A model generated the notes under the pieces. That model saw nothing but the letters and a program-made list of their open reading frames with translations, was not told the origin of the DNA and did not search any database. From the IMG/VR virus record IMGVR_UViG_3300045988_014525: a DNA stretch of 64,000 nt; one strand, 5' to 3'. The position numbers and the translations under genes are program-made. The DNA comes from a virus. Below are positions 1,546-63,358 of this stretch, in pieces (positions within the stretch are counted from its first letter, which is position 1; each line of letters opens with the position of its first letter).

Positions 1546-4500
1546 CTACTCACATACAAAACTAAGAGCACCTTCGTTAAACAATCGTGTTACAGTAGCC
1601 TTTTGTCGTTCGGTTAAACCTGCTATATACGTATCGAAGTTATCTACTTGTCCGTAGTTATCAATAACCGCACTATCTAGAAGATCAAGACCATCAAAGT
1701 CATCAAACTCTGGAATACCAGTAGTTATATCTTCGTCGTTAATACTAGTTATTTCAACTTGTGTTTCACCGTTTGTATCTTGACCTATTTGAGATAAACG
1801 ATTACGAATTTCTCCTAACATAGTATTATCAAGATTAGCATTAATCTTACCAATAATATTAGCAATTGCTTCAACTATCTTAGTAAAAAGATTGTCGCTT
1901 AATTGATCTCCTTTGCTATCATACTTAATAGTAGATAGAAGTCTAGCAAGTTCTCTACTAGTGAGAGCTTCAGTTACAAACTCTTCTATTTGAACTGCAC
2001 GAGGAGCGCCTTCTTTAAGATACTTACCATAAGTATTAGCAAGAGCTGAATCAGATTTAATAAACGAAGCAAATTTATCATATAAATCGCCAAATAATTG
2101 TTCTATATTAGCACGCTCATCGTTAAGTAAGAAATGAACTCCTTCATGAACTATCTTAAGAACTTTCTGAGTAGCATCTAATGTTTGCCATTGAGTAGTT
2201 AAGACTAATTCATTAGTACCAGCAGCTATACTAGCGAAACGTTTATCATTAGTTTCAACAGTAGGATTAACAGTAAGACCTGCTTGTTCTAAAGCAGATA
2301 CTACACCTAAAAGAGCTTCATTGTTAGTAAGACTAGTAGCTATTTCAGTAATAGTACCATTAATAGAAGTAGAAGGTACAACAGTTGGAGTAGGAACTTC
2401 AGCAGGAGAAGATCCCTTTACGGGGGTGGTCTTCGTGAGCTTCGCTGTCTTACTACGAACAGGAGCAACCAAAGTAATACGTTTGTTAAACCTGTCGTTA
2501 GTAAAATTAAAGTTACTAACAATGTTACCGTTATCATCTTTAATAGCTCCCAAATCAGCGACCACAACACCATCATTAGCAACAAACTCATTATAAGAAC
2601 TATAACCTGTATCAAACCAAACATCTCTATCTAGATTAGGAATGCGAGCTTCAAGTGTTCCATTCTCACCAATTCTAAACATGTCAGATTCATTAGTAAT
2701 AGCAGAATTAACTACATTACGAGTAATAGTAGAATAAACACCTTGCATAGCTTTCGCAAAGTTATTATTTGTATTAGTTGGTCTTGTTCTAGTATTAGGT
2801 AGATAAGCAGATAAGTTATAAGTAGAGCCATCGGGATATACGAACTTAACATTAGGATTATCTTGGTTAACATTAAACCAAATAGTAGGAGCTTGTCTTC
2901 CAAGATTAGGAATAAGAGCATTACCTTGAACACGATAACCAAACAAAGGTTTACCTGCACCAATATACTTATCTATTTCTTTAAGCAGAGCATCATGAAG
3001 ATGAACATTCTTATCATGAGTAGCTTTAAGAAGTTGAGTAAATAAAGAATCAAGACCTTCATTAAATGCTTTTGTATAAGCAGTTTCTTTAGTATGAGAA
3101 TTAGCCATAGTATTCTCTCTGGTAGCAGCAGTCATAAGTCTACCTTCTGAGTCTTTAACTACTACTCCGACAACACCACGTTTAACTCCACTAGCATCGA
3201 TTTTTTGACCAGTTTTGATATCAATAATACATTCATCTCCACCACGAACTAATTGAAAACCATTAGTCATATCAGCAGTAGTAACTTCTGCAATACTACT
3301 ATACTTAGGATTACCACGTCCATCTTTAGCATATATAAGACTACCGCTACTGGTACTTCCAATAGTTAATCGTTTACTCTTAGACTTATTCTTACTAATA
3401 GAAGAACGAAGATTATTAATATCAGAGTAAGACTTCTTAATCTTATTCATCCAATTGTTAAGAGAATCAGAAACTATCTTACCAAAGTAAGGACTAGCTA
3501 ATGAAACATTATAATCAAAGAATATAATATTATTAAGATGCTTAACTTTAGTAAGAAGATCAACATCGTTACCAAAACGAGTATTAAGTTCTTTCCATAG
3601 TTCGTTATCTTGAAGAGTATTAAGTAGATGACCGAAAGTACTTTCAATATCTGGATTGTTACGAACTTTAAATAGTCTACGAATATTACTAAGAGTAGCA
3701 AGGAATTCTTTAGCAGATTCATCATTACTATTAACAATATCTTTAAGTCTACTAATGAATGCTATGTCGTTATTACTAATAGTATATGTCCAACCTTGAT
3801 TAATAGCAACAGCATGACCATTTTCATACTTAACAAATGGAAGTTCACCAATAGTAAGACCTTTAGACTTAACGAACATATGTCCATTAGAATCTAATTC
3901 AACAGTAACAGTATTACCAGTTCTTAACTTACCAATTTGACTATATACTTTACTGTCTTCGAGATTAATAAGATCAAAGTAATAACTAGCACTATTATCT
4001 TCTTTCTTCTTTTCACTAATTGCTTTATCTAAAGTTTTCTTAGATTCAACAACAATCTCATTAGGAGCTTTATATTCAACATCAGTACTTATTATCTTAC
4101 CATCAGCAATAAGACTATTAGCAATAATCTTCATATCATTATAAAGATTAATAGCATTAGGATTCAAACGTTGGAGATAAACCATCATATCATTAATACT
4201 AGTGAAGTTCTTACCTTCAATAGCATTACCATTAATCTTATTATAAAGATCAATAATAAGTTTAATCTCTTCTATACGTTGACGCATAGGGTCTAAGTCT
4301 TGAACAGCAGATTCAAGAACTCCTTCTTCTCCTTCTGTTTTATGAGTTGCTTCTATTTCGTTATTAGCAAGAGCTATGTTAAGTTCTTCAATAGTAACGT
4401 CGGCTATTAACTTACCAGCTTTATCATAGCCATTAATACTAACATTACCAAAACGACTCTTTTCAACTAATATAGAATATACTTTAACTGGCTTACCTTT

Positions 4501-7500
4501 AATATAATCAACACTAGAGAAAGGAGTTGTAATCTTATAATTAAAAGTATCAATATTAGCTTCTGTTATAGCATTAGAAGTAGCAGCAGTAGAAACTACT
4601 TTATCAAGAGTAGCTTTAAGTTGTTTCTCTTCTTCTGTTTTAGGAGCAGGAGCAGGTTGAGCAACAGGAGGAGTATTAGGAGCTTCTGTTGGAGTACCTT
4701 GTTCCACCCCCGTAAGAGAAGGAGGTTGTGGTTTTGCTACTTGCTTAGCTTTATCAGCTTGTTCTTTAGCAAGACGAACTCGTTCATTATGAGCATTAGT
4801 CTTAGAAATATTACTTTGAATATCTTTAAGAAGTTTATCTTTATCTTTAGAACTCTTTATAATATCAGCAGCTTTACTAAGAGATACTATCTCTGGATTA
4901 TTAGCATCTTCTTCTGACATTTGATTATTAAGTACTCTATTAAGAGCAGCTAACTGTTCGTCAGTAGCATTTGCAATATATCCATTAATAGCATTCTTAG
5001 CTGTATCTAATTGAAGTTTAGCAGCACGTTCTTGATCGGCTTTAATCTCTTGAGCTTTACGTTGAACTTCTTCATTAGTAGTTGCAACTTTACTACGAAA
5101 GTTATCTCGATTAATTTCATGATAAAGTTGAAGCTCCATATTATCAACATATTCGCTGTTAATAGCACGAAGTTCTTTCATTACTTTAGTCATTGCAAAA
5201 TCCTGTACAGACTGACGATATAACTTCATGTTCTCTTCGGATTCAGTAAACTTATCAAGTTCTTGCATTACTAATTCATCTTTAGGTAAACCTAAGACTT
5301 CATCATAAGCATAACGAATATTGCGAGAATAAAGTTTATCAGAAGGTGTAAGTAAATTATTAGCATCATCTATTTTGTGTTCAATAGTATTTATTAAATC
5401 TTTATAGTTAGAAGCAGTAAGTTTATCAATAGGATTCTTACTATCTTTAACTTTGTTGTATAATTCATATGCTTCTTTACGATATTCTTCAAGACTAGCA
5501 ATAAGAATACGATTCTTAACCATAGGATCAACGTATTCTCCAAGTTGAGGAATAGATTGTTCTAATTCATTTTGAATAGATTGAATCTTTTGAATACGTT
5601 GATCTAATAAGTCTGCTTCATTAGAATTAAAGATATTCTCACTAATAGCAATATCAAGAAGAGCATCTTCGATATTAGCACTACGCATTGCAGTAGAATA
5701 AGTCTTGTACTTTTCAAGAGTCTTCTCCATTAACGCATTAAGTTCAGCAGTATCATCAGTAAAACTAGATTCTTCTGCTAAACCATTATCTATAAGTTTC
5801 TTTTTAAGACGAGGATCATTAATATAATCTTGAAGTAATTCGTAATTACCAGCACGAATAGCATTAAGGGTAAGACTAGAAACAAACCTAGTTTTAGCTT
5901 CATTAGCCATTGTCTCTTGTTCTTCTGGAGTTAACTTAGCATTACGAGGAGTACCAACACTAGCATCTTGACTAATAGTTCCATCATCTAGATAGTGAAT
6001 AATATTTCCATTAGCATCTCGTTCAAAATCATAAGGATTAAGACCTTGACTTATCTGAGACATAGTATTCTGATATTGATTAAATACTTGTTCACGACCA
6101 GTTATCTCAGCAATACGAATTTGTTCATCAGTAATTCCTCCTTTACGATTATTAATAGCTGACATAGTTCCACCAAATACAACTCCACCAATAACTCCCC
6201 AAAGAGCAGAGTTATATAATTGAGGATCTTGTAGATAATTACGTATTCTATCGATAGAAACAGCTCCTTTATAATCGTTAAGTTGCCCAAGAAGATAACG
6301 ACCATAAGCAGTTCCTTCTTCTTGACCTACATAGTTAATTGCTTCTTCAACACCTTCTGATAATTCAGATACAAGAAGATTCTCACTAGAGTTAATTAAA
6401 CGATTAAACTTACCTGCAATACCAGTAACAGTAGATTTAGCAGCTTGACCTAATGTTTGACTAGCTCCTTCAACACCAGTAGAAGCAAGTCTATCTAATG
6501 TCTGATTCTGAGCATAACGAAGTCTAGGAGTAATAGCACGATTGACTTGTCCTAACATCTTATTAACAGCACGAAGCTGCATATAATCAAATACTACATT
6601 GGCAGCATTATAAGAGAAGTTTCTCATAGATGCTTTATCAGCAATAGTTTTAGCGATCGCATCTTTATCATCAGTACCTGCTTCGTTAACAATGTCTTGA
6701 TTATCTTCTAACCATTTACGATATTCAACATCAGACATATTAACAAATAGATCAGTAGCTTCTTGATGAATCTGTTCTGCAACACCACGAGCTTCTTGAT
6801 AATTTTCACCAAGACGCATACCTATTGCAGTAATACCATCTTTAGCAAGAGCTTGAACTCTAGCCATATTATAAGCATTGTCTAGTTTAGTAATTGCACG
6901 AGCTTTATTCATAGCTCTTGCAACAGGACTACTAGTTTTAGCTAATGCTCCAATTCCTTTACCTATTGCACCAACACCTTTCTCAAAAGCCATACCGGGA
7001 ATCATAAGAGAAAGAGAACTAGCAATACTAGGAACTTGACTAAAGAACCAACCTGAGAAGTCATCAAAGTCAAATGCTTTATCGGGATTTTCACGATAGA
7101 TAGGAGCAAGCTCATCTCTAACATAATCAGAAATAGCATCTCCTGCACGAGTAATAGGATTACTAAAAGGTTTATCATCCCAAAGACCACCAGTAGCTAC
7201 ATCTACTAACATACCTATACCACCAACAGTATCTCCAAGAACTGTACCTATTGTTTGAACTAAAGTATTACCTGCTTGTTTCCATGCAGACTGATTCTTA
7301 GCTCTAAGTTTTTCAAGTTCTGATTGAGACTGATATTGATTAGGTTGAGCGCCATAACTAGCAAGACTATCATAATCCTCTGCTTTACCAGTAAATACAT
7401 TAGTTCCCATCATATTAGATAGAACATCTTTCTTCATTGATTCAGCATCAGGCTGATATAACTTGATAGGTTCATTAACAGAATTAGCCCCAACACTAAT

Positions 7501-7550: not shown

Positions 7551-10274
7551 TTACTTTAATAATTCAATCATTTGTTGTTGGAAATCAGTACTAACATTTT
7601 CACCTGTAAGATTACGATACATAGAATTAAATCGTTGGAACAATACAGGACGTTGTTCAACAGGAACTTCAGTAATAGAATTAACACCTGCATCTACCAT
7701 GACTTTATGGAATATTCCAGCAATCACATTATCTTGCTCCTTTACGGGGGAAGCAGCAATCGAGCCATTACGAGCTTGAAGTTTCTCAATCTCTGATTTA
7801 ACAGGAGCAAGAGTAGCTTTATTAGCATAATTATTAGTAAGCAGATCAGTCATATCTTGAAGATTACCAGTAATTTGACCACTACTAGTTTCTACCGTAA
7901 TTCTAGGATTACCATTTTCATCAGTACTATAAAATGCTTCATAACTTCCATCTCCTAATTCAGAATCAGATAATTTATAACCACGTTGTAAAGCAGAATT
8001 ATATTTAATTCCGTAAACAGTGCGAGCTGCTTTAACGGCAGGTATTTCTGAGAATTGTTTAATAGCATTATTAAGTGGAGCACCTACTATAAAATAACTA
8101 CCTGCATCAAGATAATTAGGTTCTTTACCATCTGCTCTTCTAGGACTATTCTTAGTAGTCTTTGGAATATATGGAAGAGTAACTGTCATACCATATTCGC
8201 CAGTAGCACTATCAACAGCCCATCCGGGAATTACTCGATTTTTATCTTGAGTATAACTAGCAGCAATATTTTCAACAATATTTCTACGCATTTCGCTATC
8301 TTCTACTTGAACTAATTTACCACTCTTATCTCGCATAAGAATCTTTAATGCTCCACCATCGGCAGTAGAAAGATTCTTAATAGCAGCTTCTGAATAATCA
8401 TCGAGAAGATTCTTAGTCATTGTTTGACCATCAACAGTAACAGTTTGAGGAATATAGAAATTTTGTATTTGAACAAAATTACTAGGAAAACTACTATCTA
8501 ATCTTTCAGTAGATTGTTTAGACAGATTAGATACTTCCCTATAAATACTAGCAATAGAATTCTTTCTATCTTTTCCTTCCCAACCGTTATATATCTTAGC
8601 GTGAGATTCAAACTTAGTAGGAAGTTCTTGAGAAGAACTAGAAAATCCTACTTGGCTATTACCAATAATATCAGCTATTTCTGGAGCAGCTTTAGTATAA
8701 GCATCTTTAGATATATAAACATACTCATCGCCATTTACTTTTTGATAACGAATGTCTTTAGATGTAAAACCTAAATTAGCAAGTTTTGTACGAATAGTAG
8801 ATAGATTATCCGGAGTATTACGAACCAATACTCTATCATTAACTTTACCATTAGATTCTACAAATAATTTATTAATAGCTTTAGCGTACTTTTGCTGATA
8901 TGGATTATCACTACTAGCCATATTACCATTACTAAATCTTTTACCTAAGAAATCAACGGCTTGAACTTCTTGTTCAGTAAGATGAGATTTCATAGCTTCG
9001 AGACGATTAGTATTGGTTTGAATAGTATTGCGAAGATTCTCAGCTTGAGTTAATAATTCATTACGAGCATTATCAGTAATACTAACGTTCTGATTAATAC
9101 GAGCACGAAGTTCAGCATATGCTTGATCATCAGTAAGATTTTTATCTATATTATACTGAGCATACATATTTCCTAGACTAGTTTGAGCATCATTAAGAGC
9201 AGACGTTAACTTACTAGGAGTATCTGGCTGAACTTCACGAGCACCAAAAGGAGAATAGAAATCTGTAATAACTCTAAGTTCTTTAGGATTAGCTGATGCA
9301 GTTTTAGCAGCTTTAGCAGATGCGGCAGCTGCTTCTTTACGACGAGATTCCATTATAGAGAAACCAATACTAGTATCAATACTAGAACTAACATGTTTGT
9401 AAGCAGAAGCAGCATATCTAGGAGCAAGTAGATTTTCTTCGAATTCTTCTTGACTCATAATAGTACCGTCTTTCTTAGTAACAAGATTATTCTTATCACC
9501 ACGACTAGCTTTCCAAGCATTAACAATGTAATCTTGTTTAAGAGAAGCACGAGCACCGGGAGTTTGATTAATAGCAGCCTCAACTGCTTGACGAATTTTA
9601 GTAGCATCTAATTTCTTAATACCGCTAGCAGTTTTAAGATAAGGTAAATCTCCTTCTGCAATACTAGCACCACTTTGTTTAATATTACCTTTATCATCTC
9701 CCCATACTAATTGTTCTCCTTGTGAAGCATCTACACCAACAGTAGATAATGCTTTACGATATATCTCATCAATATCTACTTGAGTAACAGGACGATAATT
9801 AGGAGTAAAAGTAGTACCGCCAGTAATTCTACCGTTTTCATCAGTAGTATCTTGATAGTTATATTTATTTTGAGCTAAAGCATATGCTTTAATATCACCA
9901 TCGTATTCTTTACTAGAATTAATCTCATCTTGAAACTTCTTGTATTGTTGCTGATATCTTTCACGACCAATCAAAGCAGGATTACTAGCGACTTCTCCTG
10001 CTAACTTAGTAGCAGTAGTTAAAGCAGTAGCATAACTTCCTTCTTGTGCAGCAGCTTCAATTTGATTATTAATTTGTTGACTATAATCCGTAAGCCATTT
10101 GTTTTCTGCTTCATTAAGTTCCTTATTAGCAAGAAAGGTTTTAATCTTATTAGCAGTATCAATAGCAGTTTCATGTTTCTGCTGTAACGTGTTAAGCGTA
10201 GCAGAATAAGCATCTAAGGGAGCGGCAACCCGTTCCCTTTTCTGATAACCTGATGTTTTAATATCTATTGGCAT
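7551..10274 (-). CDS. large virion protein (907 aa), function unknown
   Basis: Uninterrupted ORF with a 2-nt gap to the next gene in the same block. I recognise no catalytic motif. Confidence 0.8.
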   Translation of the reverse strand: MPIDIKTSGYQKRERVAAPLDAYSATLNTLQQKHETAIDTANKIKTFLANKELNEAENKWLTDYSQQINNQIEAAAQEGSYATALTTATKLAGEVASNPALIGRERYQQQYKKFQDEINSSKEYDGDIKAYALAQNKYNYQDTTDENGRITGGTTFTPNYRPVTQVDIDEIYRKALSTVGVDASQGEQLVWGDDKGNIKQSGASIAEGDLPYLKTASGIKKLDATKIRQAVEAAINQTPGARASLKQDYIVNAWKASRGDKNNLVTKKDGTIMSQEEFEENLLAPRYAASAYKHVSSSIDTSIGFSIMESRRKEAAAASAKAAKTASANPKELRVITDFYSPFGAREVQPDTPSKLTSALNDAQTSLGNMYAQYNIDKNLTDDQAYAELRARINQNVSITDNARNELLTQAENLRNTIQTNTNRLEAMKSHLTEQEVQAVDFLGKRFSNGNMASSDNPYQQKYAKAINKLFVESNGKVNDRVLVRNTPDNLSTIRTKLANLGFTSKDIRYQKVNGDEYVYISKDAYTKAAPEIADIIGNSQVGFSSSSQELPTKFESHAKIYNGWEGKDRKNSIASIYREVSNLSKQSTERLDSSFPSNFVQIQNFYIPQTVTVDGQTMTKNLLDDYSEAAIKNLSTADGGALKILMRDKSGKLVQVEDSEMRRNIVENIAASYTQDKNRVIPGWAVDSATGEYGMTVTLPYIPKTTKNSPRRADGKEPNYLDAGSYFIVGAPLNNAIKQFSEIPAVKAARTVYGIKYNSALQRGYKLSDSELGDGSYEAFYSTDENGNPRITVETSSGQITGNLQDMTDLLTNNYANKATLAPVKSEIEKLQARNGSIAASPVKEQDNVIAGIFHKVMVDAGVNSITEVPVEQRPVLFQRFNSMYRNLTGENVSTDFQQQMIELLK
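7738..7753 (-). repeat. GC-rich dispersed element copy
   Basis: The plus strand reads TCCTTTACGGGGGAAG. It is sense in the 907-aa ORF and is read as ASPVKE. Confidence 0.9.
10216..10239. other. GC-rich 10-bp hairpin inside the 5-prime end of the 907-aa gene
   Basis: AAGGGAGCGG-CAAC-CCGTTCCCTT (one G-T pair), 35-58 nt downstream of the start codon. Confidence 0.5.
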
Positions 10275-10282: not shown

Positions 10283-11602
10283 TTATTTAGTTTTACGTTT
10301 ACCACCACATCTATATAAATAACTCATCTTAGATAATCTCTTCATGTTTTTATCCATGTTCTTCTCGAACAAATCTACTTGTTCGGGAGTAGCAGACATT
10401 TGAGCAGCAAGACGAAGTTTATCCATTTTCTTTTTATCTCTTCCAAGTTGATAATCTCGAACAGCACCAGTAACACTATCAATCATCGCAGTACGATTGT
10501 TAGCAATCGCTTGAATCTTATCGTTCTCAATTTGAGTAACCATATTATTATGAGCATTAGTAGTTGCAGCATTTTGAGCAGCTACACTTTGACGATTCAT
10601 TGCATCTTGGTTTTGCAATTGAGTCTCCATATTTTCTTTCTCACCTCTAATACGATTACGTTCAGAAAGAGAAGCATTAGAAACTCGTTGACGTCTAGCA
10701 AGACTAGCAACAGAACTAGCAGTATTACCTGCTATATCTCTACGAGTTGTTAATTCATTTTCAGTCACATCTGACAATTGAGGATTAACATTAATAGTAG
10801 TCTTTAGTTTAGCAGGAGCTACTAATTGAGGCTTCTGTGGAGCTTGAATATTATTAATACTAGACTTATTCATAAAGCCACTAATCAAACTTCCAACTGC
10901 ACCAATACCACTACTAATAGCATCTCCATTCTTATCTAGAAACTTAGCAAATTTACTAACTTTCTTTATAGGATTACCATCAGCATCTAATTCAACAGTA
11001 GTTCCTTTCTTAGCAAATCGAGAATTAGTAATACCTTTTTCTCTCTTAAAACTTTCTTGTTCTTTAAAAGCAGAATCAGTTTGCTTAGGATTACTAATTG
11101 CTTTAGCAGCAGGAGAAAGACCACTACGAGTAAGAGGAAGAGTACTAAGAATCTTCATCTCTTTATCTTTCTTATCAATCTTAACAACTTCTCCGGCTTC
11201 TGCTTCGATACTGTTCTTACCTTTACCGATAACAATACCACCTTCATTATGCTTACGACCACGAAGAAGATAAGAGTTATTACCAATAGGCATAGCAGAA
11301 CCACCTTCGGTTATAACTGGCGTTACTCCTTTACGGGGGAGGTTTGCCTTTCCACCTTTCTTCATAAGTTGATTACGAATATCATCATAAACTTCTTCAT
11401 TTTGTGTAACTTGCTGAGTAAGAATACTAGCTTGCTGTTGAGCATTATCCATCTTTTGTCTACGTTCTGCTTCAAGTTGAGCAGCTTTCTCAGCCTTACG
11501 TTTCTTAGCGCCACCGATAATACCACCGATCAATTGAGTACCAACTGAAATAGCAGCACCAATAAACGCTTTAGGTCTTTGTTGTCTAACTGTTGTTACC
11601 AT
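10283..11602 (-). CDS. virion protein (439 aa) with an N-terminal Gly-rich hydrophobic segment and a coiled-coil C-terminal half
   Basis: ORF in the track. The N-terminus reads AFIGAAISVGTQLIGGIIGG followed by a basic stretch. The start overlaps the stop of the upstream gene by 1 nt. Confidence 0.75.
   Translation of the reverse strand: MVTTVRQQRPKAFIGAAISVGTQLIGGIIGGAKKRKAEKAAQLEAERRQKMDNAQQQASILTQQVTQNEEVYDDIRNQLMKKGGKANLPRKGVTPVITEGGSAMPIGNNSYLLRGRKHNEGGIVIGKGKNSIEAEAGEVVKIDKKDKEMKILSTLPLTRSGLSPAAKAISNPKQTDSAFKEQESFKREKGITNSRFAKKGTTVELDADGNPIKKVSKFAKFLDKNGDAISSGIGAVGSLISGFMNKSSINNIQAPQKPQLVAPAKLKTTINVNPQLSDVTENELTTRRDIAGNTASSVASLARRQRVSNASLSERNRIRGEKENMETQLQNQDAMNRQSVAAQNAATTNAHNNMVTQIENDKIQAIANNRTAMIDSVTGAVRDYQLGRDKKKMDKLRLAAQMSATPEQVDLFEKNMDKNMKRLSKMSYLYRCGGKRKTK
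11327..11342 (-). repeat. GC-rich dispersed element copy
   Basis: The plus strand reads TCCTTTACGGGGGAGG. It is sense in the 439-aa ORF in the alternative frame (LPRKG). Confidence 0.9.
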
Positions 11603-14600
11603 TATTCTCTATATTTATTAATATAACATTCAACATTACTTAGTGTAACTTTCGTATCTGTTTGATGAATGATAAAACGAATACCAATATATTTACCATT
11701 AATTAAACTATCTCGTCTATTATAACGAGTAAGTTCAGTAATACGATTCTTATCTTCATCATCTAATATCTCTATTGCATATTTTCCAGTGATTCTTTCT
11801 ATTGGTTCGATAGTCTCAACAGAACGAATTAGATTACGGAAGTAATTAAAGTTCCATTTACCGTGTTCATAATATGCTTTAGTAAGATTAGGAACATTAC
11901 GTTCTTCACTACTAATATCCCATTCAGATGATATGCAAGAGTTTGTAAATATAAGAATTTTATCTCCACTATAATTAATATTACCTAGCTTTCTTATATC
12001 ATAAGTAATATAATTAAGAAGTTTGATTGTTTCAAATTGAAGATTAAATACTATATCTACAACTGCACAATGAGAATCTTTATCACCAAGATAGAATACA
12101 TTCTTATCTGTTGGAATTTTAAATATTCCATAATCAAGATAAGTATCTACTTTAATATCTCCAATACGACCAATAACATTCTTAGAATTATCATTAGTAA
12201 TATAGAGACCAGTCTTAGTATTAAAGTATTTAGCAAAGTAATCGTGATGACTAATCCAAGTATTAGTTATAAAGGAATAAGAAGATGTAACGATAGTATC
12301 TTCCCCCGTAAAGGAAAGTAGCAAGCGATTAGCTTCTTTATCCATGCCTAGATCAATACGAGTATTACTAGTAAGAAATCTATCTATTACTATTTGAATA
12401 CCATCAGTAATATCATTAAGTTGTTTATCATCAAAACGATATATCTTACGTTTACTTCTATCAAAGAATATATAGCCTACTTCATTACAAGTAAAAGAAG
12501 TAAAGTCTTGCAAACCTCCATAACCTTTTTCACTAGTGAATACTTCTTGATATTCAGTATCAAAAGCATCTGGCATATACATTTGTACATCTTTGTCACG
12601 AGTAGCAAGAGTACTATCTCGATTAAAGATGAACATAGAATGTTCACAATGAGCAATAAGATAAACACCTATACCTAAGATATTAATAATATCTCCTTTG
12701 TTCTCACTAATAATTTTATAACCATCAGCAGGAAATTGTCTCCAAGCATTGTTAGTAGATTCGGATTGAATCACATTACTTCTACGAATAAACTTACCAT
12801 AACTTTCTATTTGATTAGAAAGAGCAGTAGGATCATAAGCATTAAGTAAAGGACGAGAATAATCTGTATATCTAGCAGCTAGTTCATAAAGACTATAAAG
12901 AGTAGCAGCAGTAAGTTGCTTATTCAATATGTTCTTAATGATATCTTCGCTATTATCTCGATAACTAAAATATACTTCGGGAACTTTACCTACTTTAATC
13001 TTAGCAGAACGAGGATAACGAACTTGCTTATATATCTGAACTGCATTAACATGCATCATATCACGACCACTAGTATTAGTATTAGGGTCATTAACAAATG
13101 CAAGATAATACTTACCGACTACATTAGCAGGGTCAATAGCATAAATAGGTTGCCATTCTCCTGCAAATTCAACACCACGTCCATCAAACATAAAGATAGA
13201 ACTGAACCTAGTATAACCAGAAACATTCTGTCTTTGTGCATTATTTCCATAACTACTAGTTTCTTTAGTAGTATAGAAATTAGGAGCTAATCTTATTAGC
13301 TTAACGTTATCTTTCTGAATATATAATTCTTGATTAACACGAAGAAGTCTACCAATAGTAGTAGATTTATGTGATTCGCCATTACTATTATTATTTATAG
13401 CAACAGGAGTTGGTTTTCTTCCATTAGCATAGAAACTAAGTTTATAATATTGACCTGCCTCAGTAGATACAAGTTGTGTATATTGAGAAAGAGCAATAAT
13501 AGTAGAATTAGTAACGTCAAGATAACTATTAAGATTATCCATCGTATATTCTTCCGAACTACCGGGAAAACAATCCCAAGTTACATATGTAGAAACATCT
13601 TGTGTAGTAGCTTGATCTCTAGTTTTGAAAGTAGTATAAAGAAGATCTATAAGAATATTAGGAACTCCACCTTTCTTAGTAACGTAAATATCTTCTGAAT
13701 AGAACTGAGTTTCAACAGTATCAACAGATAAACTTTGAAAGTTAGCATTTCTAAGAGTAGTAGAACTAGCTCCAATTGCCATATCTCTATGTTGATCTAT
13801 GATACCATCACCAATAATAATACTATCTATTTCTTCGTAACTAATAAAGTATCCAACAAATCCTTCATACATTGGAATATTATCGAATACAAAGTTTCCT
13901 TTTATTCTATGTGGAGTACGGAACAAACGATCTCCATTATTATTAGTATAAGGACAAAGATAAGTAATTCTACGAGTATTATTAGTTTCAAATCGAGGAT
14001 CAAGATTAAACCAATAGTAATCAACACCTTCAGTTTCAGACATAGCAATAAGCCCTAACTTATCTTTAATAGTACTATCATTATAATTAGGATAAGAAGG
14101 ATTAGTCTTAGCTGCTCTAATGGCTGCAACTACATCAGATACTTTAGTGTCGTCATAACAAGTCATATAGATTGGTCTATCGTACTCGCCAGTCTGAGTA
14201 TTACTATAAGTACCAATAGTTATTTGAACTCCTTTCTTAGTATCGCCAGTACGCATATTATTGTTCTCAATAATAATACCATCTGTATAACTTCCGTCAG
14301 GATAAACATAATGAACGTAGAAACGATAGACTTCATCTTCAATAGGTTTAGCATCTACTGTATAATTAAGAGTATTTCCGTATTCATCTTTTTCTGAATA
14401 AACACCAACTCTAATATTAGAAGTATCTATCTTACTTATATCTAACTTACGACTTTCTTCTTTATAATTAGCAACATATAATCTATTACCATAGTTGCAC
14501 ATTGTTTTAACATTATAAATATTAAAGTTATTAGCAGAATTAAGAACTTCATCTACTGAAAGTTTTTCTAGTACATTACGATTACCAGTAATATGATATT

Positions 14601-17965: not shown

Positions 17966-18043
17966 CGATTAGTTGTTAAGGTTAAGGCTATGAATTCAAT
18001 GTAGGGCACGAGAGATACTAAATAGAGGGTGTCTTGCTTGTTA

Positions 18044-18066
18044 CTTCCCCCATAAAGGGATGTGAA
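18044..18066 (+). repeat. GC-rich dispersed element copy (variant, G to A in the core)
   Basis: CTTCCCCCATAAAGGGATGTGAA. It is intergenic and forms the left arm of an inverted pair around the 18092-18121 hairpin. Confidence 0.8.
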
Positions 18067-18091: not shown

Positions 18092-18121
18092 AGAGCTAGT
18101 ACAATCGGCAGTACTAGCTCT
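18092..18121 (-). terminator. perfect 11-bp hairpin after the membrane-protein genes
   Basis: AGAGCTAGTAC-AATCGGCA-GTACTAGCTCT, 34 nt after the stop at 18155. The trailing T tract is weak. It is bracketed by an inverted pair of the dispersed element. Confidence 0.5.
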
Positions 18122-18125
18122 AAGT

Positions 18126-18144: not shown

Positions 18145-18154
18145 TAACAGCAAC

Positions 18155-24663: not shown

Positions 24664-24670
24664 CCGTTCA

Positions 24671-54550: not shown

Positions 54551-55269
54551 TACTTTGTTAGTTCATATGTTTGTACTTCCCCCGTAAAGGAACTTCTAGT
54601 ATTAGTTTGCGTTAACCCTAATCTAGCTCTTTCAGCTTCGGCTTGAGCTTCAATATCAGCAGCATCAGTAGCTAGCATACTAGTAGTAATTGTTTTACCA
54701 CCACGAGCTTTACGCTGTTGATTATCTAGCATAACAGCTTGCTTAGCTTCATTGAGAGTTTTAAGTTGGTTAGGAAGAAGATTAATAATAGTACTTAGTT
54801 TATTAATATAATCAATAACGACTAGAGTATCTTCATCTTTAAGACCTCCGTGCATCTTAATAGATAACTGCTCAGATATAAAGTTAGCTGCGAGATTAGC
54901 ATTATGAAGAGCACGAGATGCACTATTAAGAGCTTCTTCGGCAGGTGTCCAACCTTTCTTATATTCATCAATAATTCGATTAATAAGTTCATCCGGTTCC
55001 CAGTTAGCATCGAGACCATAATTACTCTTAGCAACAACAAGAGCTTCGGGACGACTATAACCCATTTGATTAGGAGGAGACTTAGGATCAGCTACATAAT
55101 AGATAACTCCAACTTCTTGAATATATCTACTCTTAGTAGGAGTTTTATCTCTAATATAAAGCTCTCTAACATCTTTGTCTTGAATCTGACGAATGTTAGG
55201 AGCAAATGGAATACCTTGCTCATTAACAGCAAGCATTCGAGTTATATCTAAAGGAGCAACTTCAATCAT
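54550..55269 (-). CDS. 239-aa protein, function unknown
   Basis: ORF in the track, 1-nt overlap with the nuclease gene. Confidence 0.7.
   Translation of the reverse strand: MIEVAPLDITRMLAVNEQGIPFAPNIRQIQDKDVRELYIRDKTPTKSRYIQEVGVIYYVADPKSPPNQMGYSRPEALVVAKSNYGLDANWEPDELINRIIDEYKKGWTPAEEALNSASRALHNANLAANFISEQLSIKMHGGLKDEDTLVVIDYINKLSTIINLLPNQLKTLNEAKQAVMLDNQQRKARGGKTITTSMLATDAADIEAQAEAERARLGLTQTNTRSSFTGEVQTYELTK
54576..54592 (+). repeat. GC-rich dispersed element copy
   Basis: CTTCCCCCGTAAAGGAA. It is antisense in the 239-aa ORF (SFTGEV). Confidence 0.9.
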
Positions 55270-55763: not shown

Positions 55764-56386
55764 TATAATCCGAGCAAATTAGAAGCTATAATAAACTTAT
55801 TAAACGGAGAATTCTCTGGAATACCTTCGTTACTATTATGACCAATAATATCAACAATACGAATGATCTTATAGTCAACACAAGTAACAGTTTGAATAAT
55901 AGTAGTATCTAACTTAGGAAGAGTATGACTAGTAGTATCAAGAGTCTTAATAACAGAAGCAGCTGCACTTTGTCCAACTTTACCAAAGATAGTTCCTCGT
56001 TTAATACTCATAGAAAGATCTTTATCAGTATTAATAAACTTACGGATATGACCAATGGACAATTCGTTCTTACGAGTATTACAATCAATACCGTTAAACA
56101 AATCACTAGGAGCAGCAAAAATAAAACGATTAACAGGAGTTTTATCGTTATCGTTCTCATCTGCATAATTAGCTTTAATAAGAACAGCTTTAGTATTAGC
56201 AAGACCTTTGTTATTAGTATCAATAAGGTCTACTAAAGGAGCAGTAGTTATAAGAGCAATAAGAGCATAATGCTTGCGAAGTTCAATATGTTCAACACAA
56301 GAACTAACATAATCAAATCCAATTTCATGAACTGATTGAGGAAGTCTAAAAGTTTCTTTAGTAGAATTGTTAACTAGATTAAGCAT
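55763..56386 (-). CDS. 207-aa protein, first gene of the leftward block
   Basis: ORF in the track. It borders the divergent control region, with a TATGTTTG box 75 nt upstream. Confidence 0.7.
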   Translation of the reverse strand: MLNLVNNSTKETFRLPQSVHEIGFDYVSSCVEHIELRKHYALIALITTAPLVDLIDTNNKGLANTKAVLIKANYADENDNDKTPVNRFIFAAPSDLFNGIDCNTRKNELSIGHIRKFINTDKDLSMSIKRGTIFGKVGQSAAASVIKTLDTTSHTLPKLDTTIIQTVTCVDYKIIRIVDIIGHNSNEGIPENSPFNKFIIASNLLGL

Positions 56387-56460
56387 AACTACAATAGTTT
56401 AAATGAATACTAAATTTACCAGTACTAACAGCAGTAGTATTAACACCAGTAGTAACAGTG

Positions 56461-56468
56461 CAAACATA
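56461..56468 (-). promoter_or_regulatory. Bacteroidota-type -7 box TATGTTTG
   Basis: The plus strand reads CAAACATA, 75 nt upstream of the ATG at 56386 at the edge of the divergent region. Confidence 0.35.
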
Positions 56469-56550
56469 AGGATTATAATCGGATTTAGTAGTAGAATTAT
56501 AGTTAAAAGTAGTTAAGTATAGGTATATTCACTTCCGTACCTTAGTGTAA

Positions 56551-56644
56551 ATGCGCATACGTGCGCATGTTCTAGGTGTACGCACACGTGTACGTGCGTA
56601 CATTATATACACGCGCGTATATAAGTAATGTACACGTGCGCACA
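56551..56644. repeat. cluster of CG/CA alternating purine-pyrimidine palindromes
   Basis: ATGCGCA-TACG-TGCGCAT lies at 56551-56568. GTACGCAC-ACGTGTAC-GTGCGTAC lies at 56578-56601. TATATAC-ACGCGC-GTATATA lies at 56604-56623. TGTACACGTGCGCACA lies at about 56629-56644. The G+C content is very atypical for this genome. Confidence 0.85.
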
Positions 56645-56650
56645 AATAAG

Positions 56651-56683
56651 TATCAATTATTATATGAAATATAATAATTGATA
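56651..56683. repeat. perfect 15-bp inverted repeat with a 3-nt spacer
   Basis: TATCAATTATTATAT-GAA-ATATAATAATTGATA. Confidence 0.95.
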
Positions 56684-56918
56684 GATATAATATATTTATA
56701 ATATATTATACTAGTACCCACGCTGCATAGTACAGATGCGGTTGTCGATACTACTGTTGAAGATATTGCAGAAGGTATTGAAGTCTGTACTGCAAAATGT
56801 ATTGAAGTTTGTACTGTTGTAGATATTACTGAAACTACTGTTAGAACTACTAGTCGAGCTATTGTTGTAACTATTGTTGCAACTATTACAATTACTATTA
56901 GAGGGAGTCTTGCTCATA

Positions 56919-56939
56919 TCCACCCCCGTAAAGGAATGT
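56919..56939 (+). repeat. GC-rich dispersed element copy (long form), left arm of an inverted pair
   Basis: TCCACCCCCGTAAAGGAATGT, in the divergent control region. Confidence 0.9.
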
Positions 56940-57008
56940 CAATTGCTTAAACTTCTTGTACTCCTATTGAATCTAGTTCTGATCTACCTGCCATTGACTG
57001 TGCTGAAA

Positions 57009-57053
57009 TTACTACTCAAGTTACTACTCAAGTTACTACTCAAATTACTACTA
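57009..57053. repeat. tandem 12-mer TTACTACTCAAG, about 3.7 copies
   Basis: Read directly. It lies between the inverted pair of dispersed-element copies. Confidence 0.9.
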
Positions 57054-57085
57054 TATCTACTAGTGGAGTTACTAGCAATTACCTA

Positions 57086-57109
57086 TTCACATTCCTTTAC
57101 GGGGGGTGG
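57086..57109 (-). repeat. GC-rich dispersed element copy (long form, G6), right arm of an inverted pair
   Basis: The plus strand reads TTCACATTCCTTTACGGGGGGTGG. It lies 146 bp from the left arm. Confidence 0.9.
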
Positions 57110-57140
57110 TGACAGCTAGGCTCCATCTACTATTACAACT

Positions 57141-57190
57141 CTTTAAAGAGGTTGTTCTCGTAGAGAATGAACTCTTGCTATTGCAGAGAG
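57141..57190. repeat. about 50-nt dispersed direct repeat unit, copy 1
   Basis: CTTTAAAGAGGTTGTTCTCGTAGAGAATGAACTCTTGCTATTGCAGAGAG. It contains the mini-palindrome TTCTC-GTA-GAGAA. Confidence 0.75.
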
Positions 57191-57280
57191 AGTTCTAGAT
57201 ATTGCAAATTGAATTAAAACTAGTACTGAATTAGATATTGATTATACTGTTGATTATACTATTGCAAGAGGTGCTGCTCT

Positions 57281-57330
57281 TTTTGAAAGAAGTTTCTCGA
57301 AGAGAATTATTCTTTCATTTTGTCAGAGAG
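57281..57330. repeat. about 50-nt dispersed direct repeat unit, copy 2 (diverged)
   Basis: TTTGAAAGAAGTTTCTCGAAGAGAATTATTCTTTCATTTTGTCAGAGAGG. Confidence 0.6.
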
Positions 57331-57423
57331 GTGCTAGAGTTATTAGAGTTGCTATTTGTATAAGGAGTAGAGGAAGTACTAAAATTTAGCGTAAAGATGA
57401 TACTAGAGGAATTAATAAAGGAA

Positions 57424-57497
57424 GTAATAGAGTTAGTAATAGAGTTAGTGATAGAGTTGCTGCTAGAAAAAATAAAATAAAATTTTTAGCGAGTGTG
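57424..57497. repeat. iteron-like array 1: 12-mer GTAATAGAGTTA x3 plus an AT-rich tail
   Basis: The 12-mers lie at 57424-57459. The tail is CTAGAAAAAATAAAATAAAATTTTTAGCGAGTGTG. Confidence 0.85.
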
Positions 57498-57552
57498 TTG
57501 TTATGATCGCGCAGCTAATGTTACTGAAACAATTTAGAAACAAGTTCATGTT

Positions 57553-57600
57553 GTTTAAAGATCTGTTCTCGTAGAGAATATATCTTTCTATTGTAAAAGG
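57553..57600. repeat. about 50-nt dispersed direct repeat unit, copy 3
   Basis: GTTTAAAGATCTGTTCTCGTAGAGAATATATCTTTCTATTGTAAAAGG. Confidence 0.75.
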
Positions 57601-57613
57601 AGATTCTAAGAGA

Positions 57614-57694
57614 GATAAAGTTAGTGATAAAGTTAATGATAAAGTTAATGATAAAGTTTCTACTAGAAAATAAAATAAAATTTTTGTAGTGCGT
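57614..57694. repeat. iteron-like array 2: 12-mer GATAAAGTTAAT x4 plus the same AT-rich tail
   Basis: The 12-mers lie at 57614-57661. The tail is CTAGAAAATAAAATAAAATTTTTGTAGTGCGT. Confidence 0.85.
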
Positions 57695-57760
57695 AAATTT
57701 AAGTGGCTACGGCTCCATACCAATACCCCCGCCCATCCAACTACTTATTGAACTCCCCCT

Positions 57761-57788
57761 GTCAGACCGAATGACCTTAAACATATTG
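57761..57788 (+). promoter_or_regulatory. 28-nt early-promoter/operator-like repeat, copy 1 (3 mismatches)
   Basis: GTCAGACCGAATGACCTTAAACATATTG. It ends 33 nt before the ATG at 57822. Confidence 0.55.
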
Positions 57789-58394: not shown

Positions 58395-58397
58395 AGT

Positions 58398-61261: not shown

Positions 61262-61716
61262 AGATATTACAAAATTCTGATAAGCAACTAGTTGTTGCTG
61301 CAAAAGATTCTATTATTATATTATCTGATGATAAAACTCTTGTTTCTGTTGACAAAGAGATTGTTTGTGCTGCTGCTGATACTCTTGGTATTCTTGACGA
61401 ACTTAAAGAACAAATTCGTTATTATAATGACGAACTTAATAAGATTTATGAAGATGGTCGAAATTTAAATGTTCAACTAGAAACCTATAAAGTTGAAATT
61501 AGAAATCTTAAAGACAATCTTGATCAAGTAAATAATCTATGTGAAGAAAGAGAGCGTATTATCAATGAGTGTAATCAAAAGATTATTGATTATGAAGAGA
61601 TTATTAAAGACTTAACGAAGGCGAATGAGTATTATATTCGTAAAAAGGATTGTGCCACCCCCGTAAAGGAATGTGATGATAACGATAGCTCTTATCCACC
61701 TACTAAAGTTAAGTAA
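61258..61716 (+). CDS. 152-aa coiled-coil protein
   Basis: ORF in the track. Confidence 0.7.
   Translation: MKILQNSDKQLVVAAKDSIIILSDDKTLVSVDKEIVCAAADTLGILDELKEQIRYYNDELNKIYEDGRNLNVQLETYKVEIRNLKDNLDQVNNLCEERERIINECNQKIIDYEEIIKDLTKANEYYIRKKDCATPVKECDDNDSSYPPTKVK
61655..61676 (+). repeat. GC-rich dispersed element copy (long form)
   Basis: CCACCCCCGTAAAGGAATGTGA. It is sense in the rightward 152-aa ORF (ATPVKEC). Confidence 0.9.
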
Positions 61717-62998: not shown

Positions 62999-63028
62999 AT
63001 TGATTATTCATTTAAATCATTATTATAT

Positions 63029-63358
63029 ATGAAAACAACTCATAAACAAATGTTGGAGTTTCTATTAATCATTCAAAGATTAGTTAGGAAACATTGTACT
63101 GATCTTTACTTTTTAGTTTCTACTCAATTTAAAGAATCTGAAAAAGTTCTTAGTTATATTAGTGTTTATATTACTATATATAATTTTAATAGTGATACTA
63201 TTAAATATAGTAGATTCTTTTCATTCTATATTGTTAATGATATTGAGGAAAATAATATTGTTCTTGATAATTTAAGGAACTATATTCATATGGAAGTAGC
63301 AACTATTAATAATCTAAGAGAGAAAGTCAAACGAGATTCTCTTACGGGGGAAGTATAA
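63029..63358 (+). CDS. 109-aa protein, function unknown
   Basis: The track ORF starts at 62879, but a strong terminator (62973-62998) lies inside that extension. The ATG at 63029 (MKTTHKQ) follows the terminator. Confidence 0.6.
   Translation: MKTTHKQMLEFLLIIQRLVRKHCTDLYFLVSTQFKESEKVLSYISVYITIYNFNSDTIKYSRFFSFYIVNDIEENNIVLDNLRNYIHMEVATINNLREKVKRDSLTGEV
63338..63353 (-). repeat. GC-rich dispersed element copy
   Basis: The plus strand reads TCTCTTACGGGGGAAG. It is antisense-form in the rightward 109-aa ORF (SLTGEV, then stop). Confidence 0.9.

Follow-up and report, generated by a model that had tools for sequence, protein, structure and literature searches.

Several kinds of genome-wide dispersed recognition sequence have been described. 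Chi sites, read by RecBCD or AddAB, are asymmetric, G rich, and strand specific; they occur about once per 5 kb and are overprinted on genes whatever their function. The stoperators of cluster A mycobacteriophages amount to approximately 25 to 35 asymmetric sites of 13 to 14 bp across the genome and are bound by a phage protein. The DNA uptake sequences (DUS) of Neisseria and the uptake signal sequences (USS) of Pasteurellaceae consist of a core of 9 to 12 nt within an extended consensus and are found in both orientations. The consensus sites for localized nicks in T5, phiKMV-like phages, and Pseudomonas phage tf are short and asymmetric (7 to 19 nt), present in a few to a few dozen copies, many of them intragenic. 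Their positions are shared among relatives, and the consensus drifts by single bases with the presumed enzyme (PMC3517423). In the tf/LUZ24 group, for example, positions are conserved while the consensus is one base different between relatives, from which the authors inferred coevolution of the sites with the nickase (PMC3517423). Known sites of this type lie on one strand only and are unevenly distributed (PMC3517423). Here, we analyze a GC-rich motif with the core CCCCCGTAA that is dispersed over a 64,000-nt stretch of viral DNA (IMG/VR record IMGVR_UViG_3300045988_014525; referred to as the window) and that resembles each of these systems in part.

The window belongs to a crAss-like phage of the family Intestiviridae and covers the structural half together with part of the early region. 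Among cultured or named phages, it is closest to Bacteroides phage crAss002, cr107_1, and "Rudgehvirus jaberico" (Rudgehvirus), with which the capsid, portal, and terminase genes share approximately 77% nucleotide identity, and near-identical contigs are present in IMG/VR. The exact core, CCCCCGTAA/TTACGGGGG, was found 16 times, 8 times on each strand, whereas 100 dinucleotide-preserving shuffles contained it 0.06 times on average and at most once. Seven further copies differ from it by one mismatch and have the same flanks, namely CCCCCATAA (three copies), CCCCCGTAG (three copies), and CCCCTGTAA (one copy). An eighth one-mismatch match, CCACCGTAA at 23666, lacks the flanks and was attributed to chance. 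The recount therefore agrees with an initial annotation of the window, which had reported 16 exact and 7 one-mismatch copies as far above chance. The strings and coordinates quoted in it were also correct, including identical 22-mers at 52338 and 61655 and an 18-mer at 19094 to 19111 with its reverse complement at 4707 to 4724. In an order-3 Markov model, sub-words of the motif were the most overrepresented 9- and 10-mers of the window. The consensus of the family, which has 12 copies on the + strand and 11 on the − strand, is (A/T)C(C/T)(T/A)-CCCCC-G-T-A-A-(A)GGA(A/G)(T)G.

Eighteen of the 23 copies lie in open reading frames (ORFs), 8 in sense and 10 in antisense orientation, and 5 are intergenic. 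When codons were shuffled synonymously 300 times, a control that the initial annotation had proposed, ORFs contained on average 0.16 exact copies (maximum, 2) and 0.57 family copies (maximum, 3), compared to 13 and 18 observed. Overall, we put the enrichment at 100-fold or more over the dinucleotide, Markov, and synonymous-codon null models. Intergenic copies are approximately 3-fold enriched in the window, where noncoding DNA accounts for 7.9% of the sequence. Across eight genomes, 30% of copies are intergenic, compared to a noncoding share of the DNA of 8 to 15%, and approximately 70% are found inside ORFs.

Three properties that go beyond the initial annotation were the most informative: family-wide occurrence in lineage-specific versions, even spacing on each strand, and nearly exclusively inverted neighbors. 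Every sampled Intestiviridae genome carried 26 to 36 copies, each lineage with its own version of a shared core that consists of C4-6, Y/R, an invariant T, and two purines, followed by AGGA, and that can be written as CCCC-Y-R-T-R-R-AGGA. The T and the purine after it are invariant in all lineages, and the C4-6 run is always 5′ of the T. In crAss002, 35 to 36 copies read CCCCC(G/A)TA(A/G)AGGAG, whereas the 33 to 36 copies of cr107_1 are mostly CCCCCATAA, and the 26 to 30 copies of Rudgehvirus follow TTGnTGTAAnCT-CCCCTGTA(A/G)-AGGAG with the core CCCCTGTAR. Among remoter Intestiviridae, with approximately 50% TerL identity, p-crAssphage LMMB, the prototypical crAssphage from human gut, has 29 copies of GACY-CCCCGTRG-AGGATGGA, cr8_1 uses CTAGCCG-CCCCGTAA-AAGGTATGTA (core, GCCGCCCCGTAAAAGG), cr11_1 uses GACC-CCCCGTAG-AGGAT, and cr3_1 uses TC-CCCCGTAR-AGGAA. 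In the complete genome of p-crAssphage (98,458 bp), all occurrences of CCCCGTRR are motif copies, distributed as 16 on one strand and 13 on the other, and 12 of its 15 G+C-rich islands are, or touch, the motif. Around the capsid gene, 80 IMG/VR loci had a motif density of 1 to 5 copies per 10 kb, irrespective of how far they had diverged. The group at the greatest distance (65 to 68% capsid identity) uses AGCT-CCCCCGTAG-AAGAG, and the version of distant IMG/VR relatives is given by AGCTCCCCCGTAGAAGAG. Each lineage prefers one variant and does not contain a mixture.

Neither the motif nor a comparable enriched word was found in samples of 28 to 42 kb from Crevaviridae (cr127_1), Steigviridae (crAss001-like, Bacteroides intestinalis), and Suoliviridae (cr55_1). 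These motif-free phages also infect Bacteroidales, which makes it more likely that the factor reading the motif is encoded by the phage than by the host. An origin as a host-genome element was rejected as well: among the matches listed, the 14-mer CCCCCGTAAAGGAG appeared in bacterial genomes only as scattered single matches per 8-kb stretch in unrelated taxa. The hexamer CCCCGT is missing from both strands of the crAss001-like PhiCrAssBcn15 (L092, 42 kb) and cr127_1 (L091, 28 kb), for which a rough composition-based estimate gives approximately 4 and 1 expected occurrences, respectively. This absence could hint at avoidance of the word in families that do not have the system, with numbers too small to tell. 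In crAss002 and p-crAssphage, a G+C-rich, CGCTTCGCTCCGC-like segment and a short T-rich spacer are located ahead of several copies. Such segments are located at 4215 to 4242 in L001, 36184 to 36204 and 39675 to 39690 in L002, 5668 to 5699 and 45120 to 45145 in L094, and 44491 to 44530 in L095. Some lie inside ORFs, they show no significant folding, and the element may exist in a longer form that includes them.

Motif orientation was unrelated to the direction of transcription. When intragenic and intergenic copies of the eight genomes were combined, 67 were co-oriented with the local gene and 88 were anti-oriented, which argues against promoters, terminators, and stoperator-like roadblocks for mRNA synthesis. 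A phage promoter had been considered because TA-RAGGAG resembles positions −4 to +6 of the T7, T3, and SP6 initiation regions, and it was discarded after this orientation test; read as promoter-like elements, the close pairs described below would be convergent in 15 cases and divergent in 4.

Spacing was measured for each strand separately with lineage-specific weight matrices, using a score of at least 15 unless stated otherwise. Gaps between copies on the same strand averaged 5 to 6.5 kb, and both very short and very long gaps were missing. Random placement yields a coefficient of variation (CV) of approximately 0.9. In the window, the CV was 0.41 on the + strand and 0.42 on the − strand (P of about 0.002 to 0.004 per strand), and in p-crAssphage it was 0.44 on both strands (P = 0.0014 each). 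Values for crAss002 were 0.39 (+) and 0.40 (−), with P < 0.001, and those for cr107_1 were 0.35 (+) and 0.41 (−), also with P < 0.001. The Rudgehvirus genome yielded 0.42 on the + strand at a score of at least 20 (P = 0.002) and 0.33 on the − strand (P < 0.001). It should be noted that the + strand values depend on the threshold in three genomes, rising to 0.74 in crAss002 at a score of at least 20 (P = 0.25), to 0.70 in cr107_1 at a score of at least 24 (P = 0.19), and to 0.60 in Rudgehvirus at a score of at least 15 (P = 0.036), so that one strand of crAss002 or cr107_1 is not significant at some thresholds. At the best score threshold, every strand of the four independent lineages (the window, crAss002, Rudgehvirus, and p-crAssphage) reached P ≤ 0.004. 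Pooling both strands gave a less regular arrangement (CV, 0.63 to 0.77), because + and − copies tend to adjoin each other.

This adjacency is almost entirely inverted. Among 45 pairs of neighbors no more than 1.2 kb apart, from 13 genomes or loci, 44 were inverted and 1 was direct. Pairs separated by 150 nt or less were arranged as "-> <-", with the C runs outside, in 15 cases and as "<- ->" in 4, and many opposite-strand copies were only 27 to 40 nt apart. Orientation alternated in 30 of 35 steps along crAss002 (P < 1e-4) and, less strictly, in 14 of 22 steps along the window. In p-crAssphage LMMB, both genes annotated as the plasmid replication initiator RepL, at 28.3 kb and 96.6 kb, have a "-> <-" pair upstream (28269/28368 in L094 and 46604/46727 in L095), with members 99 to 123 nt apart and 280 to 540 nt from the gene. 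As a universal partner of the motif, RepL was rejected, since BLAST returned no homologue in the window, crAss002, or Rudgehvirus.

Comparison with relatives showed that selection acts on the DNA rather than on the encoded peptide. Nine copies of the window had counterparts at the orthologous codons of crAss002, cr107_1, or Rudgehvirus, although the surrounding 80 residues were often only 40 to 60% identical. At such sites the core follows the version of its own genome; for instance, ACC-CCC-GTA-AAG in the window corresponds to ACC-CCT-GTA-GAA in Rudgehvirus. The oldest conserved site, at 46466 and 1.1 kb upstream of the capsid gene, is kept in approximately 45 distinct relatives, down to 65% capsid identity, and also in p-crAssphage (86766). 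It adjoins a hypervariable coding stretch rich in N, D, G, and Q, and it keeps the codons ACG and GGG, which are used only 51 and 26 times in 19.7 thousand codons. Retention of rare codons, ACG and GGG as well as CCC, was a feature of motif copies. The motif is thus present at orthologous positions with suppressed synonymous change, by which the proposal withstood the refutation test set in the initial annotation, and the view of that annotation that the conserved object is a nucleic acid signal overlaid on coding sequence is well supported.

The same annotation had proposed that at least one copy arose in place, and two cases bear this out. At copy 26223, crAss002 and cr107_1 have TCGCTTACTGGTAAG and no motif; the differences are mainly synonymous, with crAss002 reading TCG-CTT-ACT-GGT-AAG for the same S-L-T-G. 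Fibre copy 39077 lies in a repeat whose paralogue, repeat 2, is of equal length and motif free (PDPPTGEDIVP versus AKPTSQELIP, as originally quoted). Some copies fall at gaps of 9 to 15 nt (3 to 5 codons) in Rudgehvirus, which indicates that gain by small indels also occurs, but copies are not generally acquired through insertion of a mobile unit.

A nearly fixed reading frame had also been claimed. In the window this holds, with nCC-CCC-GTA-Axx in 7 of 8 sense copies and xTT-ACG-GGG-Gxx in 9 of 10 antisense copies, but it does not stand as a special property of the motif. Over eight genomes the preference was real but weaker (42/9/0 for sense and 42/17/6 for antisense copies). The favored frames encode [STPA]PV[K..] and [FLIV]TG[GAVDE], and the proteome contains 10 and 16 peptides compatible with them, compared to 3, 3, and 1 for other frames; one sense frame of the motif is a stop. 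The preference therefore reflects opportunity, as the proteome accommodates peptides of the two favored frames.

The individual copies of the window are distributed as follows. The first of the sense copies on the − strand is ACCA-CCCCCGTAA-AGGGATC at 2411 to 2430 in the gene for a 2,000-amino-acid (aa) virion protein, where it encodes T-P-V-K and has orthologous copies in crAss002, cr107_1, and Rudgehvirus. GCTT-CCCCCGTAA-AGGAGCA at 7735 to 7754 in a 907-aa gene corresponds to CCCCCATAG in crAss002 and cr107_1. ACCT-CCCCCGTAA-AGGAGTA at 11324 to 11343 is read in a minority frame (L-P-R-K-G) and is also present in crAss002 and cr107_1, while Rudgehvirus has a 5-codon gap at the site. ACCT-CCCCCGTAA-GAGAAGG lies at 19096 to 19115 in a 168-aa gene, and the variant ACCA-CCCCCATAA-GGGTATC, at 34609 to 34628 in a 1,166-aa gene, is orthologous in crAss002 and cr107_1. 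The site of CCCA-CCCCCGTAA-AGGATAA at 41691 to 41710, in a 298-aa structural gene, is shared by crAss002, cr107_1, and Rudgehvirus, the last of which reads its own version, CCCCTGTAG. A further variant, ACTT-CCCCCGTAG-AGAAACA at 47187 to 47206, is located in the portal gene, and relatives have no copy at the orthologous place. On the + strand, GCCA-CCCCCGTAA-AGGAATG at 61654 to 61673 is sense in a rightward 152-aa gene and belongs to the 22-mer subfamily.

Antisense copies on the + strand include TCCA-CCCCCGTAA-GAGAAGG at 4703 to 4722, in the gene for the 2,000-aa virion protein (S-L-T-G-V), and TCTT-CCCCCGTAA-AGGAAAG at 12299 to 12318 in a 1,279-aa gene (S-F-T-G-E), which is orthologous in crAss002 and cr107_1. 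The copy that arose in place in a 2,626-aa gene is CCTC-CCCCCGTAA-GGGAGTA at 26219 to 26238. Three variants are TCTC-CCCCCATAA-AGGAAGT at 34832 to 34851, in a minority frame (L-W-G-E); TCTT-CCCCCGTAG-GAGGGTC at 39073 to 39092, in repeat 1 of the 940-aa fibre; and TCTT-CCCCCGTAG-AGGGACT at 46462 to 46481, in a 421-aa gene upstream of the major capsid gene. ACCT-CCCCCGTAA-GGGAGCT at 42328 to 42347 lies in a 219-aa gene and is represented by a degenerate TCCTTTAAGGGGGAT in crAss002. TCCA-CCCCCGTAA-AGGAATG at 52337 to 52356, of the 22-mer subfamily, is found in a 159-aa gene and is orthologous in crAss002 and cr107_1, and ACTT-CCCCCGTAA-AGGAACT at 54575 to 54594 is near the 3′ end of a 239-aa gene. 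On the − strand, ACTT-CCCCCGTAA-GAGAATC at 63335 to 63354 ends at the stop codon of a 159-aa gene. Two short forms without the C run, TTCCGTAAAGGTT, are present on the − strand at 24042 to 24054 and 42700 to 42712, as originally noted; their membership in the family is uncertain.

The remaining copies are intergenic. GCTT-CCCCCGTAA-AGGAATG (−) occupies 24669 to 24688, and two variants form a "-> <-" pair downstream of the ring-protein genes, with ACTT-CCCCCATAA-AGGGATG (+) at 18043 to 18062 as the left member and ACCA-CCCCTGTAA-AGGAGTG (−) at 18126 to 18145 as the right one. A perfect 11-bp hairpin, AGAGCTAGTAC-aatcggca-GTACTAGCTCT at 18093 to 18123, lies between them; it has the look of a terminator and only a weak T run. 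The last two copies are located in a 1.4-kb divergent intergenic region (56386 to 57771) that separates the leftward structural operon from the rightward genes. This pair (56923/57097) is embedded in 51-nt inverted arms that are 76% complementary and separated by 141 nt. The left arm (+) spans 56893 to 56943 and holds TCCA-CCCCCGTAA-AGGAATG at 56919 to 56938; the right arm (−) spans 57085 to 57135 and holds CCAC-CCCCCGTAA-AGGAATG at 57090 to 57109. Between the arms, the 12-nt sequence TTACTACTCAAG is tandemly repeated 3.7 times in iteron-like fashion (57009 to 57052). A 12-nt periodicity was also found at 57423 to 57458 (AGTAATAGAGTT, 3 repeats) and 57614 to 57658 (GATAAAGTTAAT, 3.8 repeats), and the region holds three copies of TGTTCTCGTAGAGAAT, an AT-rich 20-nt palindrome (56646 to 56688). 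The region is a candidate origin or regulatory hub. It also contains an alternating purine-pyrimidine, GC-rich stretch at about 56545 to 56640.

Two other sequences were set apart from the motif. The second most enriched word family, TCGGCAG, has 13 sites in the window (e.g., 8359, 18105, 27779, 45799, and 59720); 12 are antisense to the local gene, and the 13th (18105) is intergenic. The corresponding sense reading is GCT-GCC-GA (Ala-Ala-Glu/Asp), and the strong orientation bias indicates a codon or peptide effect rather than a second dispersed signal. In the spacer to the left of the 2,000-aa gene, a G+C-rich inverted repeat followed by TTTTT (GCAGCGAAACGCCCGCTGTGCCGCTTTTT, 1388 to 1413) resembles a terminator and is unrelated to the motif.

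Taken together, the motif is very probably a selected cis-acting DNA signal, and not a peptide, RNA structure, or mobile insertion. It would be read strand specifically by a factor that is particular to Intestiviridae and most probably encoded by the phage, with one site needed per approximately 5 to 6 kb on each strand. Every site would impose a cost on coding sequence; copies would therefore settle in tolerant places, such as intergenic spacers, variable linkers, and peptides like T-P-V-K and S-F-T-G-E, and a second nearby copy on the same strand would not be kept. The required process should read the strands singly, run over the genome in either direction, and be indifferent to transcription. 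It should gain from a correctly oriented site within a few kilobases, with extra sites costing something without gain. Priming of the lagging or complementary strand fits these properties, and so does Chi-like regulation of a helicase-nuclease that processes DNA ends. We give somewhat less than an even chance to the reader being a phage-encoded enzyme that tracks single strands, the sites serving either as dedicated primer starts in place of random priming or as a phage-owned, Chi-like mark of self that separates phage from host DNA during end processing.

Between these two, we slightly favor priming. Tentatively, the sites may be strong primer-start signals for the DnaG-family primase of the phage, a dispersed version of single-strand initiation (ssi) signals. 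The C-rich strand would act as the template, with synthesis starting opposite the invariant T of 5′-CCCCC-G-T-R-3′ and the 3′ purine remaining uncopied. The resulting primer, pppA-C-G-G-G-G-G, would form a stable hybrid through its G run with the C run of a genome that otherwise has approximately 30% G+C. Docking would take place at the purine-rich AGGA(G/TG) tail, which follows on the 3′ side. A + copy would serve rightward forks and a − copy leftward forks, which would explain the equal strand numbers, the even spacing per strand, and the indifference to transcription. Close "-> <-" pairs would lead to divergent synthesis and possibly to a bidirectional start.

Four observations speak for this assignment. 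The invariant T-purine with a C run on its 5′ side resembles the T7 primase site, 5′-GGGTC-3′, from which the enzyme makes pppACCC; for the T4 primase, the recognized sequence is GTT. Divergent synthesis from a C-rich template would predict the "-> <-" bias of close pairs. One pair, that at 56.9 and 57.1 kb, flanks iteron-like repeats, as do ssiA and ssiB in RSF1010, where two ssi signals lie inverted on opposite strands beside the iterons. Finally, a DnaG-family primase is annotated in Intestiviridae, as are a superfamily 1 (SF1) helicase and an SNF2 ATPase.

Several points weigh against priming. Between 16 and 25 nt are conserved here, compared to 3 to 5 nt in known, frequently occurring primase sites, and the 5- to 6-kb fragments that would result are long. 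In many crAss002 and cr107_1 copies, GTA is replaced by ATA. The "-> <-" bias (P of about 0.01) would be equally expected of a hairpin or terminator whose stem has a G:C-rich base. A DnaB-type helicase may be lacking, as judged by annotation, and Pfam did not clarify the nature of the helicase and primase candidates. A Chi-like signal, moreover, predicts even spacing per strand just as well.

Under that alternative, which we consider unlikely though still the strongest rival, the motif would act as a polar checkpoint. A helicase-nuclease tracking one strand from a DNA end would be attenuated, or switched to recombination, by a correctly oriented site. The enzyme could be phage encoded, as a RecD-like SF1 helicase with a RecB-family PD-(D/E)XK nuclease, or, less likely, the host AddAB or RecBCD. 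Spacing of about one site per 5 to 6 kb on each strand, equal strand numbers, and independence from transcription all agree with such a role; one strand of the motif is G rich, as in known Chi sites, and among the gene products of the family are an AAA_30/PIF1-type SF1 helicase and a PDDEXK_1 nuclease. The packaging mode agrees too. The phage crAss002 is a pac-type headful packager with permuted ends, whereas crAss001, which belongs with the motif-less phages, has fixed terminal repeats (PMC8042965). Headful packaging leaves the ends without a fixed place in the genome, and the two orientations would need to be evenly spread. On the other hand, known Chi sequences have 5 to 8 nt, far fewer than the at least 14 to 25 nt conserved here, and we know of no phage-encoded Chi system. 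Lineages with a common host genus have different flanks, which argues against a host enzyme, and the sampled Bacteroides phages of other families are motif free. The "-> <-" bias of close pairs is not predicted. Similarity breakpoints between relatives were not enriched at the sites either: in blastn alignments, 0 of 42, 2 of 46, and 0 of 34 lay near copies, by which a role of the motif as a module boundary or recombination junction was rejected as well.

It is rather improbable that the motif marks localized single-strand interruptions, that is, sites for a phage nickase as in T5, phiKMV-like phages, and tf, but on both strands. Length and number are comparable (the tf consensus has 9 nt at 14 sites, and that of phiKMV has 14 specified bases), conserved positions combined with a lineage-shifted consensus repeat the pattern of the tf/LUZ24 group, and crAss002 carries HNH endonuclease genes. 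The analogy, drawn in the initial annotation, fails on distribution: known systems are one stranded and uneven (PMC3517423), in contrast to the even spacing and nearly equal numbers here (12 + and 11 − in the window, 16 and 13 in p-crAssphage). Opposite-strand pairs 27 to 40 nt apart would, if nicked at high occupancy, give double-strand breaks. Fragile or nicked sites that break assemblies were not apparent either: of 48 ends in partial metagenomic contigs, 1 was no more than 100 nt away from a copy, which is a weak test.

A comparably low probability applies to duplex binding sites for an architectural or regulatory phage protein that would bind the asymmetric site as a monomer and act in genome organisation, condensation before packaging, or silencing. 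An information content of approximately 14 to 25 bp is typical of a sequence-specific protein, sites and reader appear to coevolve, and the intergenic enrichment (30% versus 8 to 15%) and clustering in the main regulatory region are as expected. Such a protein would not obviously need even spacing per strand or the 44:1 avoidance of direct neighbors, and approximately 70% of the sites are inside ORFs in both orientations. The IHF-like (integration host factor-like) phage proteins were rejected as readers because the genes in question encode tail ring proteins. The gene products of 15441 to 17783 match the Pfam families CrAss_Ring_1 and CrAss_Ring_2, while public records of relatives call their counterparts "integration host factor / histone-like," an older annotation that is misleading.

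We regard an RNA-level element, whether a terminator, a processing site, or a structured transcript motif, as very improbable. Its support comes from the close "-> <-" pairs, which form very stable hairpins (z of −6 to −7) between genes or at a convergent junction. Some of the hairpins are long and perfect: the window pair 18047/18133 folds at −24.8 kcal/mol (z, −6.2), and the crAss002 pair 64740/64779, at a convergent gene junction at 64.7 kb, folds at −31 kcal/mol (z, −7). These hairpins are not followed by a U tract, and strong folding was confined to inverted pairs. Many single copies had been proposed to be hairpins with a constant loop and compensating flanks, which the data do not support: no covariation between flank columns was found among 117 copies, stability exceeded that of flank-shuffled controls by only 1 to 2 kcal/mol, and seven individual intergenic copies folded no better than shuffles (z of +0.5 to −1.1). 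Late genes are transcribed from one strand, so their transcripts would carry two different sequences about equally. A search of Rfam gave no match at the gathering score, and no tRNA was detected.

A selfish or neutral origin, in which the motif would be a small mobile element or would result from biased repair or gene conversion and would have no function for the phage, is the least credible reading: although some copies coincide with the 9- to 15-nt gaps in a relative and the CG, CA, and TG variants resemble deamination products, several copies were made in place with length unchanged, orthologous sites have persisted since subfamily divergence (TerL identity, ~50%), each lineage prefers one variant without mixture, and even spacing per strand is predicted by neither drift nor transposition. 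A mobile hairpin of the repetitive extragenic palindromic (REP) or miniature inverted-repeat transposable element (MITE) type was rejected because single copies form no stable hairpin, some originated in place, and most are intragenic.

The motif appears to be undescribed. Versions of the window, p-crAssphage, and cr8 types, searched as literal strings, matched only unrelated primers in the searchable literature, and searches by topic returned nothing on such a motif, in line with the initial annotation, which knew of no such element in crAss-like phages. A study of the phi14:2 RNA polymerase reported no common motif upstream of early transcripts and middle promoters of the host type only. Strand-wise regular spacing with inverted neighbors is, to our knowledge, unreported for any phage, and the system behind it has a substantial chance of being new. 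If the primer-start or the phage Chi-like reading is true, it would constitute a genome-wide system of cis elements undescribed for any phage, and a primase or helicase-nuclease with a specificity of 16 to 25 nt would be an enzyme of interest in itself.

These findings matter because the motif is family wide, at least as old as the subfamily splits, under strong selection, and present in p-crAssphage. They concern the best-known group of human gut phages, the DNA metabolism of which is almost unstudied. Approximately 30 precisely defined sites per genome can be probed in the cultured phages crAss002 (Bacteroides xylanisolvens) and Rudgehvirus (Bacteroides cellulosilyticus), with sharp predictions at a known base, namely, primer 5′ ends, nicks, nuclease pausing, or protein footprints. 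The motif can also serve as a compact signature by which Intestiviridae contigs are recognized and subtyped and as a constraint to be respected when these genomes are recoded or engineered. In addition, it provides a clean natural example of a DNA-level signal fitted inside proteins.

Among known systems, nick consensus sites are similar to the crAss motif in size, copy number, and shared positions, and they differ in lying unevenly on one strand, whereas the crAss motif uses both strands equally, is evenly spaced on each, and places opposite copies 27 to 40 nt apart. The number of copies, 23 in 64 kb of the window and 26 to 36 per complete genome, is stoperator like. Stoperators, however, are oriented with transcription, lie mostly in short intergenic gaps, and belong to temperate phages; an orientation ratio of 67:88 and mostly intragenic copies (~70%) do not support that analogy. 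No repressor or integrase was seen among the annotations examined, in which no dedicated search for them was made. DUS and USS share preferred frames, tolerant protein parts, and inverted pairs in spacers with the crAss motif. They are present in hundreds to thousands of copies in a competent bacterium and are read by its uptake machinery, whereas the crAss motif belongs to a virulent phage family; the analogy suggested earlier does not extend to the host, in which uptake sequences would reside and where the 14-mer search, among the matches listed, gave only scattered single matches. Chi, at 5 to 8 nt, is an element of the host genome and skewed with replication direction, in contrast to 14 to 25 nt, specificity for a phage family and its lineages, no skew, and, among the matches listed for the 14-mer, no dispersal in bacterial genomes. 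Primase sites (T7 5′-GGGTC-3′ and T4 GTT) and ssi signals (G4 oric and RSF1010 ssiA/ssiB) have strand specificity in common with the motif; a G-T-N core with an uncopied 3′ base and a primer-templating 5′ flank may also be shared, although G is replaced by A in many crAss002 and cr107_1 copies, and the inverted window pair beside iteron-like repeats mirrors the arrangement in RSF1010. Primase trinucleotides are far shorter and far more frequent, and ssi signals are structured elements of approximately 40 to 140 nt with one or two copies at an origin, compared to approximately 30 copies per genome, located in ORFs, for the crAss motif. Thus, although it matches none of these systems on their defining features, the motif is of the same broad kind as Chi, uptake sequences, nick sites, and stoperators: a recognition sequence dispersed throughout the genome.

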